Assembly (NCBI GenBank): GCA_044229845.1 | Contig: JBGASG010000001.1 | Span: forward strand, 672,001 to 736,000 | Direction of reading: 5' to 3' | Length of the DNA stretch: 64,000 nt | Source of the DNA: Candidatus Obscuribacteraceae bacterium | Lineage (GTDB): Bacteria; Cyanobacteriota; Vampirovibrionia; Obscuribacterales; Obscuribacteraceae | The notes under the pieces: generated by a model | Seen by the model: the letters and a program-made list of their open reading frames with translations, nothing else | Databases searched by the model: none | Told to the model about the DNA's origin: nothing | In this document: positions 6 to 26,893 of the stretch, one piece after another | Position numbering within the stretch: the stretch's first letter is position 1 | How the letters are laid out: each line of letters starts with the position of its first letter | Translations under genes and position numbers: made by a program

Positions 6-551
6 TCAGGTGGTAGCCTGTTGGGCAGCGGCCAACCGATAGTTGGCGGCATATCCGACATAGTTTCGCCAGCCTCGCGCGATGCGCTCTCTGTCCTCGG
101 GGCGCACGGGACGTACGACTTTGCCGGGCACACCCATGACGATGCTGTTAGCCGGAATGCGGGTGTTAGGCGCCACAACTGAGCCGGCGGCGATCAGGCA
201 GTTTTCTTCCAGGTGAGCGCCGTCCAGAACAATGGCTCCCATGGCTATCAGGCAGTTCGGTTCGACGTGACAGCCATGCAAAATGACGCCGTGCCCGACG
301 GTGACGTTGTCTTCGATGATTAAAGGATGGCGGTTGGTGACGTGAAGCAGGCACCCGTCTTGAATATTGCTATTCAGTCCGATCTCTATCCTATTAATGT
401 CGGCGCGGACGACCGTATGAAACCAGACGCTGCTGTTGGTCGCCATGGTCACCTGTCCGATCAGGACAGCGGTCGGGGCGACGAAGCAAGAAGGGTCAAT
501 CTGTGGGGTTTTCCCGTCGTAGGAGTAGACGGGGTAGCCCTGGGGAGGCAT
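6..551 (-). CDS. Gamma carbonic anhydrase family protein (YrdA/CaiE-like, left-handed beta-helix)
   Basis: Hexapeptide repeats and motifs VRADINRI, NIQDGCLLH, VTVGHGVILHGC. Start placed at ATG 549-551 (MPPQGY); the ORF track extends it to 674. Confidence 0.9.
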   Translation of the reverse strand: MPPQGYPVYSYDGKTPQIDPSCFVAPTAVLIGQVTMATNSSVWFHTVVRADINRIEIGLNSNIQDGCLLHVTNRHPLIIEDNVTVGHGVILHGCHVEPNCLIAMGAIVLDGAHLEENCLIAAGSVVAPNTRIPANSIVMGVPGKVVRPVRPEDRERIARGWRNYVGYAANYRLAAAQQATT

Positions 552-22490: not shown

Positions 22491-23099
22491 TCACTGGATC
22501 TTGCCTGTCTTGGCTCCCGGCACCATCGATGTATAGCCAATACGTTTGCTCGCTGCTGTTTCCAGGTCAGATATGGAGGCGCCCGATTCGCTCGATTGCA
22601 CTTGCTCCATGTTGTTGTACAACACGTTGAATATTTGCTCCCCTCCGCTGCGAACGCAATCTTGAAAGAGTTCCGCTTTGGAGATAAATCCGTCTTTGTC
22701 CGAGTCGATATCGTTGAAGAGTAAGCTGACTCGGTATGCATCGCCGAAAACACTCTCTTGCACGTCTGAAACGCGATGTGCTTCATTGAGGATTTCGAGA
22801 TCACCGAATTCGACGACGTCCGGATCGCCTGCCGTGGAGGCAATGGACTAGTACTTGGAGTAAAGCGCGCGCACGGTGCTGGGCGGGTCTATTCTCATAA
22901 GCCGAAATGCCGCCAGCGTGTCTCCGGTTTCCTGGCGCGAAAGCGTGCCATCGTCATTGGTGTCAACTGCCGACGCGTGCCTGAGATCGTAAAGTTGAGG
23001 CGGGTACTGGTAAGGGAGCAGCTTCTGGGTGCACTTATCTTAATCCGAGACAGGCGGTGCGAATTCAGACGGAATAAGTAGATTGCGGGTCAGCCTCAC
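22491..23099 (-). pseudogene. Degenerate EF-hand protein remnant
   Basis: One frame carries two EF-hand loops (DTNDDGTLSRQE, DSDKDGFISKAE) interrupted by in-frame TAG (22848-22850) and TAA (23040-23042). Confidence 0.65.
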
Positions 23100-23733
23100 C
23101 GAGATCCCACGGCGCAAGTTTCATTTCCCAGAAGCCGTCCAGGCGGCCGCAGGCGACGAACGAGAGATCCAGAGCCGCCGATGCATCCCGGCGCACGCCG
23201 TGAGAAGCGTCGGTTACGCGGACGAACTGCTCGAAGTTGTTATATTTGGCGTTCTGGCTGTCTGGAGGAAACCCGGTCGCCAACAGCGATACAGCCAGCG
23301 ATTTGCTTTGAGAAACCTTGATCTGTTTTTCGTTCAGATAAGCTCCCTTGCCCCGCTCCGCCCAAAACACTTCATCGGAGATCGGATTGTAGACCACGCC
23401 GAAACGCGCCTGACCTTCGACTTCAAAGCCGATGGAAACGCTGAAGAATGGATAGCTGTGGGCGAAATTGGTGGTTCCATCGAGCGGATCTATAAGCCAG
23501 CGCCGCTTTGCGTCCTTGCTCTCCAGTAAGCCGCTCTCCTCAGCCAGGATGTAGTCGTCCGGAAAAGCTTCGCGAATAATCGAGATGACGAGCGCTTCCG
23601 AGGCTTTGTCGACGTCGGTGACCACGTTGAAGGCGCTTTTGTAGTCGATGTTCTTGATGTTGCCGACACCCTTGCGCAGTACTTCGCCAGCCTCCTGGGC
23701 GGCGCGCAACGCGACTTCCTTGACTTTCTCCAC
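23065..23733 (-). pseudogene. suhB: Inositol monophosphatase family (SuhB), 3'-truncated
   Basis: VTDVD, ILAEE, WLIDPLDGTTNFAH, SAALDLSFVACGRLDGFWE. Ends at PWDLG plus 10 unrelated residues, lacking the AAG..I..EAGG segment. GTG start with AAGGAG SD. Confidence 0.75.
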
Positions 23734-23812
23734 TGCGGTCTCCTTTTCTTTCGGCCCGGCTATTGTAGCTAAGAGGGGCAATAACAATCGTTTACCAAGC
23801 GCTGCTGCCCGA

Positions 23813-23841
23813 TTGACGGGTCTTGGCCTTGAAAGTAGTGT
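23813..23841 (+). promoter_or_regulatory. Putative sigma70-type promoter for the ileS leader: TTGACG-17 bp-TAGTGT
   Basis: Near-consensus -35, TAnnnT -10 and canonical spacing, ~30 nt before the leader ORF. Confidence 0.5.
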
Positions 23842-23871
23842 TAACCTATTAAAGTGAGCGTCCCCTCTCCG

Positions 23872-23976
23872 ATGAAAACCGTGTCACCAGCAACCCAACC
23901 GAAAGTCCCAAATGTGGGCGCCTCTGGCGCTTTCAGTTTGTTGCTGGGTTCTCAGATAATCATTATTGGCGGCTAA
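23872..23976 (+). CDS. Putative ileS attenuator leader peptide MKTVSPATQPKVPNVGASGAFSLLLGSQIIIIGG
   Basis: Four consecutive Ile codons ATA ATC ATT ATT (23956-23967), two codons before TAA. No clear SD; alternative in-frame GTG/TTG starts exist. Confidence 0.72.
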   Translation: MKTVSPATQPKVPNVGASGAFSLLLGSQIIIIGG

Positions 23977-23979
23977 TCG

Positions 23980-24038
23980 GCTGGGGCAGCAAGGTTTTTC
24001 CTGCACCAGCGCCTCAGGTCGCTGGTTTTTTGTTTTTT
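23980..24038 (+). terminator. Attenuator: antiterminator overlapping an intrinsic terminator upstream of ileS
   Basis: Terminator ACCAGCG (24005-24011)/CGCTGGT (24020-24026) plus T tract; antiterminator GCTGGGGCAG (23980-23989) pairs with CTGCACCAGC (24001-24010), 9 of 10. Confidence 0.78.
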
Positions 24039-24061
24039 AGAGCACATGTGGAGTTACCGTA

Positions 24062-26893
24062 ATGAGTGAGAAGCAGTACAGCGTCAATTTGCCGCAGACA
24101 GGCTTTCCAATGAAGGCCAACAGCGCGGTGCGCGAAGTGGAACTGCAAAAGATGTGGGATCACGAGCGCGTCTACGAGAAAGCGCTGGATAACCGCAAAA
24201 AGGGCGACAAGTTCGTGTTGCACGACGGTCCGCCTTACCTGAGCTCGGCGAAGATCCACATCGGCACGGCGCTCAACAAAATATTGAAGGACATCGTCAC
24301 CAAGTACAAGGCCGTCAAGGGCTTTTACGCTCCTTATGTGCCCGGCTATGACAGCCACGGGCTGCCGATCGAAACCGCCGTCTTGAAGGATGTGAAAGGC
24401 GGTCGCCATGCTTTGACTCCGGTCGAACTGCGTAAGCGCTGTCGTGAGTTTGCGCTCAGCAATTTGAAAGGACAGGAAGCCAACTTTAAACGCCTTGGTG
24501 TCTGGGGAGATTGGGAGCACCCGTACATCACGCTCGACCAAAAGTTCGAGGCGACTCAAATCCGTGTGTTCGGCAAAATGGCAGAGCGTGGGTATCTCTA
24601 CAAAGGATTGAAGTCTGTTCAGTGGTGCCCGACCTGCGAAACAGCATTGGCTGAAGCCGAAGTCGAGTACGCAGACCACGTGTCTGATTCGATCTACGTC
24701 AAGTTTTCGGTCGCCGATGACTCGCGGGATAAGCTGCCGCCGGAGGTGAAAAACGAAAAGGATGTGTCGTTCGTGATCTGGACGACTACTCCGTGGACAC
24801 TGCCGGCTAATCTAGGCGTGGCATTGCATCCTGATTTTGTCTACGAGTTTTTGAAAGCTCCGACCGGCGAAGTCGTGGTGGTGACTGAGGCTTTGAAAGA
24901 AGCCTTCCTCAAGGAAGTCGGTTGGGATGCCGCGCAGACAAAGGTTCTTGCCACTCGCAAAGGCAAAGAACTCGAACTTATGAACACACGGCATCCATTT
25001 ATAGACCGCAACAGCCTGGTCATGGTTGGTGAACACGTAACCGCCGAGACCGGTACCGGTGTTGTGCACACCGCTCCCGGCCACGGTCCTGAGGACTTTG
25101 AGTTGGGCGCGAAGTACAAGGTCGGCGTTCTCAATCCGCTCGATGGACGTGGTGTCTTCACCGAAGAAGGCGGCAAGTTCCAGGGGTTGCGGTACGACAA
25201 GGCCAACCCGGAAGTTGTGGCGCACTTGAAAGAACTAGGAAAGCTGCTCAAGCACTCAACCTACTCGCACAGCTATCCGCACTGCTGGCGGTGCAAGAAA
25301 CCGCTCGTCTTTCGCGCGACGGAACAATGGTTTGCGTCGGTCGACGGATTTAGAGATAATGCGTTGCGCGCAATCGATGCTGTGCAATGGTTGCCGGCGT
25401 CTGGTCGCAACCGCATATTCGCCATGGTCGAAAATCGCTCCGACTGGTGCATCAGCCGCCAGCGCGCCTGGGGCGTACCGATACCGGTGTTCTACTGCAA
25501 TCAGTGCAATAAACCGGTCTACACGCCGGAGACGGTCGAACGCATCGCCTCAGTCTTCGAAAAAGAAGGCTCCGACAGTTGGTGGGAGCGCGAACCCGAG
25601 CACTTCCTCGGCAAAGGATTCAAGTGTCCGCACGATGGCGGCACCGAATTCACGCGCGAGACGGACATCATGGATGTCTGGTTCGACTCGGGAACCACGT
25701 GGGCATCCGTCATCGACGGACGTCCGGAGTTGCTCGGCTCTCCCTGCGAGATGTATCTCGAAGGCAGCGACCAGCACCGCGGATGGTTCCAGTCATCCCT
25801 TCTGACCAGCGTCGCCGTACATGAGCGGGCACCATACAAGACCGTGCTCACGCATGGTTTCGTCGTGGATGAAACCGGACGCAAGATGTCCAAATCAATG
25901 GGCAATGTCGTCGAGCCTGATGAAGTGATCAAGCAGTACGGCGCCGATGTACTGCGTCTCTGGGTGGCTTCTGTCAACTACACCGATGACATACCGATCG
26001 GCAAAAACATGCTGGCTCAGCTGGCCGAGGTATATCGCAAATTACGCAACACTGCACGCTATCTTCTGGGTAACCTGCACGACTTCGACCATGCAACCGA
26101 TGCGGTCCCTTTGGAGAAACTGAAAGGGCTGGACGCGTACATATTGCATCGCCTGCAAGAGGTCGTGAAAGAAGTCACTGAAGACTTCGACCGCTACGAG
26201 TTCTTCAAGTACTACCAGCTGTTACAAAACTTCTGCGTAGTCGATCTGTCCAGCTTTTACTTCGACATCGTCAAAGACAGACTCTACACCTCAGGCAAGA
26301 AAGACGAGAACCGTCGCGCTGTCCAAACAGTATTGAACGAGATACTGCAAGTGTTGGTGCGTCTGCTGGTGCCGGTAACGCCACACCTTGCGGAAGACAT
26401 CTGGCAGCACATACCGTCGCAATTGCGCGGCGTGGAAGCGAGCGTGCTTCTCACAGATTTTCCGAAACCACGAGCGGATCTGATGACTCAAGATCCAGTC
26501 TTCTGGGATGAGTTGATCAAGGTGCGTTTCGTCGTCAACAAAGCGCTGGAGCAAGCCCGCGCCAGCCGGAAGATCGGCAGTTCGCTGGAAGCTCAGGTCA
26601 AACTGAAAGTCGACCAGCCCGATCTGGCGACCAAAGTTTCGTCGCTGGGCGCTGAGTTGCCCGGATTCTTCATCACTTCGCAAGTAGAAGTGTTGCCGGA
26701 GAAGGAACAGCTGCATACCGAAAATGGGCACCTTTCGCACGTCAGCGAAGGCGGTGTCAGTGTACTTGTGCTGCCGGCGACGGGAGCCAAGTGCGCACGG
26801 TGCTGGAAGTTCTCCGACAAGGTCGGCGACGACAAATCCTTCGCCGATCTCTGCGATGTCTGCGCAGCCGTAGTCGGTGCTGAGAAAAAGTAG
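24062..26893 (+). CDS. ileS: Isoleucine--tRNA ligase (type 1)
   Basis: LHDGPPY, HIGT (HIGH variant), WTTTPWTLPAN, GTGVVHTAPGHG, DWCISRQR, EGSDQHRGWF, KMSKS, C-terminal CARC...CDVC zinc finger. Confidence 0.99.
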   Translation: MSEKQYSVNLPQTGFPMKANSAVREVELQKMWDHERVYEKALDNRKKGDKFVLHDGPPYLSSAKIHIGTALNKILKDIVTKYKAVKGFYAPYVPGYDSHGLPIETAVLKDVKGGRHALTPVELRKRCREFALSNLKGQEANFKRLGVWGDWEHPYITLDQKFEATQIRVFGKMAERGYLYKGLKSVQWCPTCETALAEAEVEYADHVSDSIYVKFSVADDSRDKLPPEVKNEKDVSFVIWTTTPWTLPANLGVALHPDFVYEFLKAPTGEVVVVTEALKEAFLKEVGWDAAQTKVLATRKGKELELMNTRHPFIDRNSLVMVGEHVTAETGTGVVHTAPGHGPEDFELGAKYKVGVLNPLDGRGVFTEEGGKFQGLRYDKANPEVVAHLKELGKLLKHSTYSHSYPHCWRCKKPLVFRATEQWFASVDGFRDNALRAIDAVQWLPASGRNRIFAMVENRSDWCISRQRAWGVPIPVFYCNQCNKPVYTPETVERIASVFEKEGSDSWWEREPEHFLGKGFKCPHDGGTEFTRETDIMDVWFDSGTTWASVIDGRPELLGSPCEMYLEGSDQHRGWFQSSLLTSVAVHERAPYKTVLTHGFVVDETGRKMSKSMGNVVEPDEVIKQYGADVLRLWVASVNYTDDIPIGKNMLAQLAEVYRKLRNTARYLLGNLHDFDHATDAVPLEKLKGLDAYILHRLQEVVKEVTEDFDRYEFFKYYQLLQNFCVVDLSSFYFDIVKDRLYTSGKKDENRRAVQTVLNEILQVLVRLLVPVTPHLAEDIWQHIPSQLRGVEASVLLTDFPKPRADLMTQDPVFWDELIKVRFVVNKALEQARASRKIGSSLEAQVKLKVDQPDLATKVSSLGAELPGFFITSQVEVLPEKEQLHTENGHLSHVSEGGVSVLVLPATGAKCARCWKFSDKVGDDKSFADLCDVCAAVVGAEKK

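Follow-up and report, generated by a model that had tools for sequence, protein, structure and literature searches.

Attenuators with Ile regulatory codons are found in ilvL, ivbL and thrL, which belong to biosynthetic operons and in which Ile codons are mixed with Leu/Val or Thr codons. The classical attenuator model of the synthetase operon pheST comprises four segments with a protector pairing. Such a protector helix is part of the trp-type four-segment layout; attenuation as such does not require one. A survey of synthetase attenuators across phyla was reportedly presented by Lopatovskaya et al. in 2010. The available part of PMC1262725 cites pheST as a synthetase example of attenuation and describes ileS of Actinobacteria as being under translational T-boxes. 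Some lineages swap T-boxes for leader peptides, as the portions of PMC1262725 and PMC2965389 at hand indicate for trpS and leuS of Streptomyces and for a hisS paralogue and hisZ of Bacillus. PMC2965389 contains 0 mentions of ileS. In Caulobacter crescentus, CCNA_03934 has been named an "ileS leader CDS" in a study that mapped CDSs by ribosome profiling (PMC4117421, in excerpt). According to the same excerpt, leader CDSs (ileS, trpS) may regulate the downstream genes, and the ileS leader CDS is used only as a negative control (PMC4117421). A literature search on Obscuribacterales/Melainabacteria returned no description of a regulatory RNA or attenuator, and no account of this mechanism acting on ileS was retrieved either. 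The novelty suggested for an ileS attenuator in the first-pass annotation of the present DNA is to be tempered, since a translated leader CDS of ileS had already been named in Caulobacter.

The window, i.e. the whole stretch of 64,000 nucleotides that was analysed, contains an ileS gene of an Obscuribacteraceae bacterium. Upstream of this gene, the first-pass annotation had located a putative promoter, a 34-codon ORF with a run of four Ile codons, two complementary segments A and B, and a terminator. All of these were recovered at the same positions, including the T tract ending about 23 nt before the ileS ATG (T tract to 24038, ATG at 24062). In window coordinates, the leader is composed as follows:

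23813..23841, plus strand: promoter-like site with TTGACG (-35) at 23813-23818, a 17-nt spacer and TAGTGT (-10) at 23836-23841.
23872..23976, plus strand: putative leader ORF with ATG at 23872, 34 codons and TAA at 23974-23976, encoding the peptide MKTVSPATQPKVPNVGASGAFSLLLGSQIIIIGG.
23956..23967, plus strand: putative regulatory codons ATA ATC ATT ATT, four Ile codons and the sole Ile codons of the ORF, with the stop two codons on.
23980..23989, plus strand: segment A, predicted 5' arm of the antiterminator, GCTGGGGCAG, beginning 3 nt past the stop codon.
24001..24011, plus strand: segment B, shared arm, CTGCACCAGCG, predicted partner of A (antiterminator) or of C (terminator).
24005..24038, plus strand: predicted intrinsic terminator with an ACCAGCG/CGCTGGT stem and an 8-nt loop (24005-24026), followed by TTTTTGTTTTTT to 24038; a terminator scan concurs.
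24062..26893, plus strand: ileS, isoleucyl-tRNA synthetase, 943 aa, with Pfam tRNA-synt_1 (E 2.4e-134) and Anticodon_1.

The whole element is compact, with a length of about 190 nt. Its transcription start is predicted near 23848, and the leader ORF is predicted to be translated. Segment A (GCTGGGGCAG) pairs with CTGCACCAGC (24001-24010) at 9 of 10 positions, leaving one G/A mismatch, and the terminator hairpin has a folding energy of -13.1 kcal/mol. The ATG of ileS at 24062 is preceded by GGAG at a distance of 9 nt. Upstream, on the minus strand, lies a divergently oriented inositol-monophosphatase-like gene. RNA contigs assembled from four metatranscriptome runs are short and cover only 24111-24747 within ileS.

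The roughly 250 bases before ileS are likely to attenuate transcription by means of a leader peptide and a translating ribosome, with charged tRNA-Ile as the signal sensed. Transcription would begin near 23848, and the leader would be translated while RNA polymerase proceeds. With plentiful Ile-tRNA(Ile), the ribosome would reach the TAA codon and hide segment A (GCTGG...) with a footprint extending about 9 nt past the stop codon; as A begins only 3 nt past the stop, a terminating ribosome would cover it. Segment B would then be free to pair with C once C is made, and the hairpin with its U tract would end the transcript before ileS. When charged tRNA-Ile is scarce, i.e. when isoleucine or IleRS activity is short, the ribosome would stall 3-6 codons earlier, within the Ile run. 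Segment A would then be exposed and bind B at a time when C has yet to be transcribed, the terminator would come too late, and ileS would be transcribed. As a net effect, IleRS output would feed back directly on transcription of ileS. That the leader is translated, that transcripts terminate before ileS and that readthrough responds to Ile are predictions from sequence, and the mechanism is the textbook one; no concept is changed.

Known RNA families do not account for the element. The T-box model (RF00230) gave no match in 23600-24200 at E-values up to 10. Across the genome, whose completeness is 88%, it likewise gave 0 matches, whereas control genomes responded. The amino-acid leader families of Rfam 15 likewise gave no match in the region at E-values up to 10. 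Five weak Rfam matches (E 0.12-5.8) belonged to unrelated sRNA or snoRNA models falling on the terminator hairpin and were discarded as chance matches.

The distribution of the element was determined with a covariance model that begins with the Ile run, ends with the T tract and excludes ileS sequence. This model matches 61 of 104 Obscuribacteraceae genomes, representing 23 of 37 genera, and 43 of the 104 have no match. Each matching genome has one match, with the exception of one genome (G107) with two. All 61 examined matches are located 14-88 nt upstream of an ileS homologue on the same strand, and 60 of these 61 hold an ORF that has at least two Ile codons among its last eight and terminates at the equivalent position with respect to the hairpins. 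Zero matches were obtained in 120 genomes from ten other families of the class and in 150 other genomes of the phylum, a wider search in which divergent versions may be missed by this sequence-specific model. Reading 41 match-less ileS upstream regions, including those of Gastranaerophilales and Vampirovibrionales, revealed no Ile-run ORF with a terminator. A motif in one group of these regions, TGTAATATTATT, reads as an extended -10 box and not as a leader.

The matches comprise 58 distinct sequences, which served as the set for counts of geometry, helices and folds. Anatomy, conservation, covariation, geometry and the position before ileS are matters of observation in this set. Four Ile codons are found among the last eight codons in 29 sequences, three in 14, two in 14, and one in a single sequence; at one locus (L075), the Ile run is lost. 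In the family alignment, codon positions 1 and 2 of the Ile run are near-invariant and the third position is T, C or A. The last Ile codon precedes the stop by 0-4 codons (2 codons in 37 of 58), and the spacer between the stop and segment A is 0-4 nt long in 54 of 58 sequences; one genus (g3) has a 9-nt spacer and weak A:B pairing. The leader peptides have lengths of 9 to 34 aa when the shortest in-frame start is used, and the sequence preceding the Ile run is unconserved between genera. Measured as the fraction of alignment rows carrying the majority base, conservation is 0.82 for the Ile-run columns, 0.80 for the stop and 0.79 for the T tract, and it is 0.91 for the GCTGG core of A, 0.83 for B and 0.77 for C. 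Segment B is kept as a CCGCCAGCG-like sequence, with the shared arm CCAGCG conserved. Spacers and loops are poorly kept (0.20-0.47), the loops and the A-B spacer being the least conserved parts (0.20-0.28).

The initiation signals were also compared across the family. A simple promoter scan made no call at 23813..23841 in the window and was silent because the -10 element matches at just 3 of 6 positions. A looser pattern of TTGACN-16..18-TANNNT, however, precedes the leader ORF in 44 of the 58 distinct family sequences, compared to 57 of 2900 shuffles. There is no Shine-Dalgarno sequence at the leader ATG in the window, nor in most relatives. The caveat of the first-pass annotation on this point therefore holds family-wide: at leader starts, anti-SD pairing has a median of -2.3 kcal/mol, versus -5.6 at ileS starts, which were picked by a script and in a few cases are upstream TTG codons inside the attenuator. 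Only 8 of 58 leader starts reach an anti-SD pairing of -6 kcal/mol.

The lack of a Shine-Dalgarno sequence would suit a different reading, in which the switch is real but is set by a factor other than the ribosome, such as IleRS acting on its own leader, uncharged tRNA-Ile or a small molecule, with the ORF being incidental. ThrRS acts in this manner on its own thrS leader. The sequence conservation of GCTGG and CCAGCG, which exceeds the needs of pairing alone, points in the same direction, although conservation of B is also expected of an arm with two pairing partners. A ligand-binding RNA, however, needs neither Ile conserved as codons, with wobble, in frame and with the stop 0-4 codons on, nor a stop that is followed by segment A after 0-4 nt, as is the case in 54 of 58 sequences. 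Moreover, the loops and the A-B spacer, which would be the sites for a ligand pocket or a tRNA mimic, are precisely the least conserved parts, no T-box or riboswitch family matches the leader, and Leu and aromatic leaders precede cognate biosynthetic genes in the same genome. Control by such a factor is therefore considered very unlikely, and a translating ribosome remains the preferred sensor.

Ribosome-mediated attenuation depends on two alternative helices. The predicted antiterminator and terminator are mutually exclusive, both using the 5' arm of the terminator. In the family, 93.3% of the cells of the terminator are paired and changes on both sides occur in 5 of 9 pairs, while the antiterminator has 73.9% of cells paired in a fixed register and double changes in 6 of 10 pairs. 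The covariation scores were reached by 0 of 500 shuffles for either helix, counts that overstate independence, since the sequences are related and their alignments had been fitted to the model. In slid registers, pairing was 28-55% for the terminator and 25-50% for the antiterminator. In individual sequences, the A:B duplex has a median energy of -15.7 kcal/mol versus -8.1 for shuffles, and the terminator has a median of -14.6. In 47 of 58 sequences, A:B beats 95% of its own shuffles; against other segments taken from its locus, it reaches the same 95% mark in 54 of 58. The comparison of ileS leaders from relatives that the first-pass annotation had put forward as a check thus yielded a conserved Ile run and compensatory changes in both helices. 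More generally, its assignment to attenuation of the trp/his/pheST type agrees with all sequence-level predictions testable here, namely a wobbling Ile run, the spacing of A, compensatory changes, a promoter-like site and the lack of a T-box.

The first-pass annotation had further proposed that a ribosome at the stop masks the antiterminator arm, while one stalled on the Ile codons frees it. Nascent transcripts were folded with ribosome masks and scored for sequestration of at least 5 nt of the terminator 5' arm by A. The antiterminator was present in 46 of 58 sequences without a ribosome and likewise in 46 when the first Ile codon was occupied, but in only 7 when the ribosome was placed at the stop. 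In the window, A:B is the minimum-energy structure of the nascent transcript when the third or fourth Ile codon is occupied; with the first or second occupied, it comes to within 0.2-1.8 kcal/mol of the minimum. These nascent folds agree with the proposed switch, but equilibrium folds of the full-length leader do not. In the window, equilibrium favours the terminator by 4.5-5.8 kcal/mol even when A is free. Across the family, masking the stop with a ribosome yields the terminator in 56 of 58 full-length folds. When the mask is on the first Ile codon instead, the minimum-energy fold contains the antiterminator in 19 of 58, the terminator in 22 of 58 and another structure in 17 of 58. An equilibrium switch was therefore rejected, as the masked full-length folds gave no clean switch. 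Since the terminator wins at equilibrium, the predicted switch must be kinetic, with A:B being kinetically trapped.

A conserved upstream partner of A, corresponding to the 1:2 protector or pause helix of the trp model, was not found in the family sequences. Only in the genus of the window is there a 5'-UTR segment able to pair with A, at an energy that differs from that of the A:B fold by no more than 0.7 kcal/mol. The predicted layout of the leader is one of three segments with no conserved protector hairpin. As a conserved protector is missing, an untranslated leader is predicted to read through and not to terminate.

The terminator as the favoured equilibrium fold could also be expected of a constitutive element, i.e. 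a terminator that shields ileS from transcription arriving from upstream or gives rise to a small RNA, or an ORF that tunes ileS via translation-dependent mRNA stability. Some small RNAs derived from attenuators are known to have their own functions, an example being rnTrpL. The upstream gene is divergent, however, leaving no plus-strand gene whose transcription would have to be ended or kept away from ileS. If the terminator were constitutive, ileS, an essential gene starting 23 nt further on, would require a second promoter, and none is apparent in these 23 nt. As such an element would furthermore leave the conserved segment A, the spacing of A to the stop and the Ile run unexplained, it is regarded as very improbable, and attenuation by the leader peptide is retained.

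The signal from the window alone is modest, and it is conservation that raises the predicted element above chance, in a genome in which Ile accounts for only 4.9% of the codons in long ORFs of the contig (C1). In the window, the A:B duplex has an energy of -16.2 kcal/mol compared to a shuffle mean of -10.2 and is equalled by 3% of shuffles. The fold of the whole leader is not better than that of shuffles (z -0.88), and a scan found 5 terminator-like sites in 4.5 kb versus 5.5 expected. These weak window statistics, with an unremarkable fold and terminator-like sites no commoner than in shuffles, are what a chance coincidence of ORF, complementarity and hairpin in an intergenic region would give, but this explanation has a negligible probability and is refuted by 61 genomes from 23 genera that keep the identical order of parts before ileS although the intervening sequence has diverged.

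The ileS leader is accompanied by others in the same genome, in which a Leu-rich leader with a terminator precedes leuA and an aromatic-rich leader with a terminator precedes a DAHP-synthase-like gene. In related loci, cognate-rich mini-ORFs, defined by at least 4 cognate residues that make up at least 20% of the peptide, are present before leuA in 21 of 26 cases and before the aro gene in 22 of 29. A genome-wide leader scan returned 62 raw candidates, which were mostly noise. An ORF ending in WWW on contig C14 was dropped as probably spurious, with a weak hairpin (-9.1 kcal/mol) and an unidentified ORF downstream. It appears fairly probable that the ileS leaders form an undescribed RNA family, consisting of an Obscuribacteraceae-specific, three-segment Ile attenuator of ileS that lacks a Shine-Dalgarno sequence and belongs to a set of cognate leaders (Ile for ileS, Leu for leuA, and Phe/Tyr/Trp for DAHP synthase).

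The element is a well-supported cis-regulatory candidate in Obscuribacterales/Melainabacteria, a lineage for which metagenome bins are almost the sole source of knowledge. If the proposed mechanism is true, uncultured non-photosynthetic relatives of cyanobacteria sense amino-acid supply via coupled transcription and translation, and a synthetase gene is under a type of control that other phyla assign to T-boxes. With the predicted attenuator, ileS would join the few synthetase genes that are under leader peptides instead of T-boxes. Together, the Ile, Leu and aromatic leaders would imply coupling of transcription and translation in these bacteria, and they may be used as markers for annotating their operons.

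Compared to the systems described so far, the ileS leader CDS of Caulobacter is likewise a short CDS upstream of ileS, in Alphaproteobacteria; the excerpt of that study gives no sequence, Ile-codon content or terminator model for it. The synthetase leader peptides of Streptomyces and Bacillus concern other amino acids and other phyla than the ileS leader described here. With the T-boxes of ileS, the leader shares the gene and the signal, i.e. charging of tRNA-Ile, and those of Firmicutes also have the terminator/antiterminator output in common with it. In contrast to T-boxes, which bind uncharged tRNA directly with a structured leader of roughly 200 nt, sensing is here assigned to a putative translated ORF, and A and B are only about 25 nt apart. 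The enterobacterial attenuators of ilvGMEDA (ilvL), ilvBN (ivbL) and thr (thrL) resemble it in having Ile regulatory codons, a terminator with a competing antiterminator, and kinetic co-transcriptional control. Unlike these, the present leader would control a synthetase and has Ile as its sole regulatory residue. In Escherichia coli pheST (pheM), a synthetase gene is preceded, as it is here, by a leader ORF rich in its own amino acid and by alternative hairpins, with the charged cognate tRNA being read by the ribosome. This comparison is made by layout and not by sequence, as pheST responds to Phe and belongs to gammaproteobacteria while the present leader has Ile codons. In contrast to the classical pheST model, the ileS leader of Obscuribacteraceae is predicted to operate with three segments and no conserved protector.

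The leader region of ileS was read between positions 23500 and 24300. Segment A is the 5' arm of the predicted antiterminator, segment B is a shared arm that can pair with A or with segment C, and C is the 3' arm of the terminator. The features, identified by reading the sequence unless another source is given, are the following:

23813-23818 and 23836-23841, plus strand: promoter-like site, TTGACG, 17-nt spacer, TAGTGT
23872 (ATG) to 23974-23976 (TAA), plus strand: leader ORF of 34 codons, MKTVSPATQPKVPNVGASGAFSLLLGSQIIIIGG
23956-23967, plus strand: ATA ATC ATT ATT, the sole Ile codons of the leader ORF
23980-23989, plus strand: segment A, GCTGGGGCAG
24001-24010, plus strand: segment B, CTGCACCAGC, of which 9 of 10 positions pair with A
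24005-24026, plus strand: terminator hairpin ACCAGCG/CGCTGGT formed by B with C (also from a terminator scan)
directly 3' of the hairpin, to 24038, plus strand: T tract, TTTTTGTTTTTT
24062 (ATG), plus strand: ileS, 943 aa (Pfam tRNA-synt_1 plus Anticodon_1)

Thus, the promoter-like site, the ORF with its single Ile run, the complementary segments, and the terminator with its T tract were all found as the first-pass annotation had described them, and the terminator scan reports the same hairpin. The absence of a Shine-Dalgarno sequence at the leader ATG holds in the window and in most relatives; in the family, anti-Shine-Dalgarno pairing has a median of -2.3 kcal/mol at leader starts versus -5.6 kcal/mol at script-picked ileS starts.

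Taken alone, the statistics of the window are weak. In scans of the window region, the promoter-like site was not called and terminator-like sites were no more frequent than in shuffles. The fold of the whole leader is no better than that of shuffles (z -0.88), and the A:B duplex of -16.2 kcal/mol is equaled by 3% of shuffles.

The hairpin is not the terminator of an upstream plus-strand gene because the upstream gene is divergent. This neighbor (23065-23787, minus strand) belongs to the inositol-monophosphatase family (Pfam Inositol_P, E 1.1e-55), and its likely start, by reading, is a GTG near 23734-23736 with AAGGAG ahead of it rather than the longest-ORF TTG at 23787. An AT-rich motif, AATAACAATCGTTTACC, lies at 23781-23797, 15 nt 5' of the -35 box, and AATAAGAATCATTAACG was read at the equivalent place in several relatives; searching the 58 leaders with a loose pattern recovers the motif in only 12. 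Possible roles are an UP-like element, a binding site for a regulator, or a portion of the promoter that serves the divergent minus-strand gene. Four sludge metatranscriptome libraries contain short contigs that match the ileS coding sequence exactly; they extend over 24111-24747 only and could stem from DNA carry-over.

In a DNA search of 41 relatives, 17 genomes yielded the ileS 5' end, and the same layout was readable in 12 of these: a short ORF with an Ile run near its stop, GCTGG-like, CCAGCG-like, and CGYTGG-like segments, and a T tract. These 12 sequences were aligned over the span between Ile run and T tract, both included, and used to build a covariance model whose structure is the terminator and which contains no ileS sequence. 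The model matches in 61 of 104 genomes and 23 of 37 genera of the Obscuribacteraceae, once per genome except for two matches in one genome (G107), and has no match in the other 43 genomes. All 61 examined matches, the 30 best of which were checked first, lie 14-88 nt 5' of ileS on the same strand. The alignment of ileS leaders from relatives, proposed as a check in the first-pass annotation, revealed a conserved Ile run in 60 of these 61 matches, with an ORF ending inside the match and containing at least two Ile among its last eight codons, and compensatory changes in both helices. The lone exception, locus L075 of genome G105, has kept A, B, C, and the T tract and lost the Ile run.

The model also matches 38 of 80 named ileS loci, which have IleRS N-termini up to 99% identical and titles such as Candidatus Obscuribacterales bacterium, Candidatus Obscuribacter sp., and Candidatus Melainabacteria bacterium; the window belongs to this non-photosynthetic group, which is related to cyanobacteria. 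None of the loci titled Gastranaerophilales or Vampirovibrionales was matched, and in 41 match-free ileS upstream regions no Ile-run ORF followed by a terminator could be read. There were no matches in 120 genomes from ten other families of the class or in 150 other genomes of the phylum. So far as a sequence-specific model can detect, the element appears to be confined to one family.

In the 58 distinct aligned sequences, the majority base is shared by a fraction of 0.82 of rows in the Ile-run columns, 0.80 in the stop, 0.91 in the core of A, 0.83 in B, 0.77 in C, and 0.79 in the T tract, compared with 0.20-0.47 in spacers, loops, and post-run codons. The first two positions of the codons in the Ile run hardly vary while the third is T, C, or A, which is the signature of codon selection and not of a DNA motif. 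The shortest leader peptide has 9 aa (MYTSIIIPT) and the longest have at least 34 aa; 5' of the Ile run, the peptides have nothing in common between genera.

In the family alignment, 93.3% of the terminator cells are standard pairs, and changes on both sides were found in 5 of 9 pairs; slid registers are 28-55% paired. The antiterminator, scored in a fixed register (columns 28-37 with 58-67), has 73.9% of cells paired and double changes in 6 of 10 pairs, with 25-50% in slid registers. None of 500 shuffles attained the covariation score of the terminator, and none of 500 attained the paired percentage or covariation score of the antiterminator, counts which overstate independence because both alignments were fitted to the model and are made up of related sequences. 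Since bulges shift the register in many sequences, A:B was also scored per sequence. The duplex of the 20 nt after the stop with the B region has a median of -15.7 kcal/mol versus -8.1 kcal/mol for shuffles. Of the 58 sequences, 47 have a duplex better than 95% of shuffles, and 54 have one better than 95% of the other windows at their own locus. For the terminator hairpin, the median is -14.6 kcal/mol. In one genus, GCCGGC in A and GCCGGCG in B represent a compensated T-A to C-G change, and B forms G-U pairs with segment C. In another, GGCGTGG pairs with CCACCGCC; the register is shifted, yet this pairing still overlaps the arm of the terminator. The element is degenerate in genus g3 (loci L070, L072, and L109), with a 9-nt gap between stop and A and weak A:B pairing.

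The distance from stop to A is 0-4 nt in 54 of the 58 distinct sequences, and the last Ile codon lies 0-4 codons 5' of the stop (two codons in 37 of 58). Four Ile codons are present in 29 leaders, three in 14, two in 14, and one in a single leader. Nascent transcripts were folded to the end of B with a modeled ribosome footprint that reached from 15 nt 5' to 11 nt 3' of the A-site codon's first base, and A was scored as sequestering the terminator 5' arm when it held at least 5 nt of it. The first-pass annotation had proposed that a ribosome at the stop masks A and that one stalled on the Ile codons frees it. For nascent folds this switch stood: A sequesters the terminator arm in 46 of 58 sequences with a ribosome on the first Ile codon and in 43 of 58 on the last, versus 7 of 58 on the stop; the count is also 46 of 58 without a ribosome. 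In the window, A:B is the minimum-energy fold with a ribosome on the third or fourth Ile codon, is 0.2-1.8 kcal/mol from the minimum on the first or second, and is impossible on the stop. At equilibrium the switch was not clear-cut. With C added, the terminator is favored, by 4.5-5.8 kcal/mol in the window, and when a ribosome sits on the first Ile codon, only 19 of 58 family sequences have the antiterminator as their minimum-energy fold. Hence, the switch has to be kinetic. Classical attenuators are kinetic too, in that the first helix formed decides.

No protector helix is conserved in the family, and readthrough is thus predicted for a leader that is not translated. In the nascent leader of the window, folded without a ribosome, CCCCUCUCCGAU (23858-23873, 5' UTR and start codon) pairs with AUCGGCUGGGG (23976-23991) and covers A. 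This minimum-energy fold, noted in the genus of the window alone, is only 0.7 kcal/mol better than A:B; according to the folding, it could be a protector helix in that genus. Of the 58 sequences, 44 have TTGACN-16..18-TANNNT 5' of the leader ORF, versus 57 of 2900 shuffles, and such promoter-like sites would fit a transcription start ahead of the leader.

Conservation, covariation, stop-to-A geometry, and nascent folds make ribosome-mediated Ile attenuation of ileS, as the first-pass annotation had suggested, the best explanation; the feature is real, and we consider it probable, with good confidence, that it functions in this way.

The whole assembly was also scanned for short ORFs ending in a single-residue run before a terminator with a long ORF after it. 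Noise aside, this yielded three cases, namely the ileS leader and the following two:

contig C3 of the same genome, stop at 192238, minus strand: Leu-rich leader ORF, MQSMTQFQLLLGALSLLLNGGALLLSLEN, 11 Leu of 29 (locus L167/L169)
contig C1 of the same genome, stop at 160928, minus strand: aromatic-rich leader ORF, MTTQRNWFYGYFFFARGFPG, with a -17 kcal/mol hairpin and T run (locus L168/L195)

Directly 3' of the Leu leader stop, AAACAGAGTC has complementarity to the 5' arm of a terminator (-19 kcal/mol). The terminator leads into a T run and, about 50 nt beyond, a gene start. Judging from the N-terminal sequences, the downstream genes likely encode 2-isopropylmalate synthase (Leu leader) and DAHP synthase (aromatic leader). 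Mini-ORFs were counted if cognate residues numbered at least four and accounted for at least 20% of the peptide; they precede the leuA homolog in 21 of 26 related loci (Leu-rich) and the aro gene in 22 of 29 (aromatic-rich). The aromatic leader peptides of relatives, for example NWFYGFYFYARESPG and YYWYFFFFAGGTPG, often end in R-G-x-P-G. No T-box was found in the genome. Three leaders with a codon bias matching the amino acid of the downstream gene argue for ribosome-mediated sensing in these bacteria.

The ileS element is thus predicted to be an Ile attenuator with three segments that controls a synthetase gene and is specific to one family of an uncultured lineage. Literature searches for an ileS leader peptide, attenuator, or uORF found no description of it, while the survey of Lopatovskaya et al. 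(2010) may list ileS attenuators in other phyla; searches for attenuation in Melainabacteria, Vampirovibrionia, or Obscuribacter found nothing on the element or the lineage. T-boxes of ileS are known from Actinobacteria, and candidate leader peptides of Streptomyces trpS and leuS have been likened to pheST (PMC1262725). His leaders upstream of a Bacillus hisS paralog and a general switch from T-box to leader peptide have been described in an article whose accessible text leaves ileS unmentioned (PMC2965389). In Caulobacter, an 'ileS leader CDS (CCNA_03934)' served as a control in a study remarking that leader CDSs may regulate downstream genes (PMC4117421).
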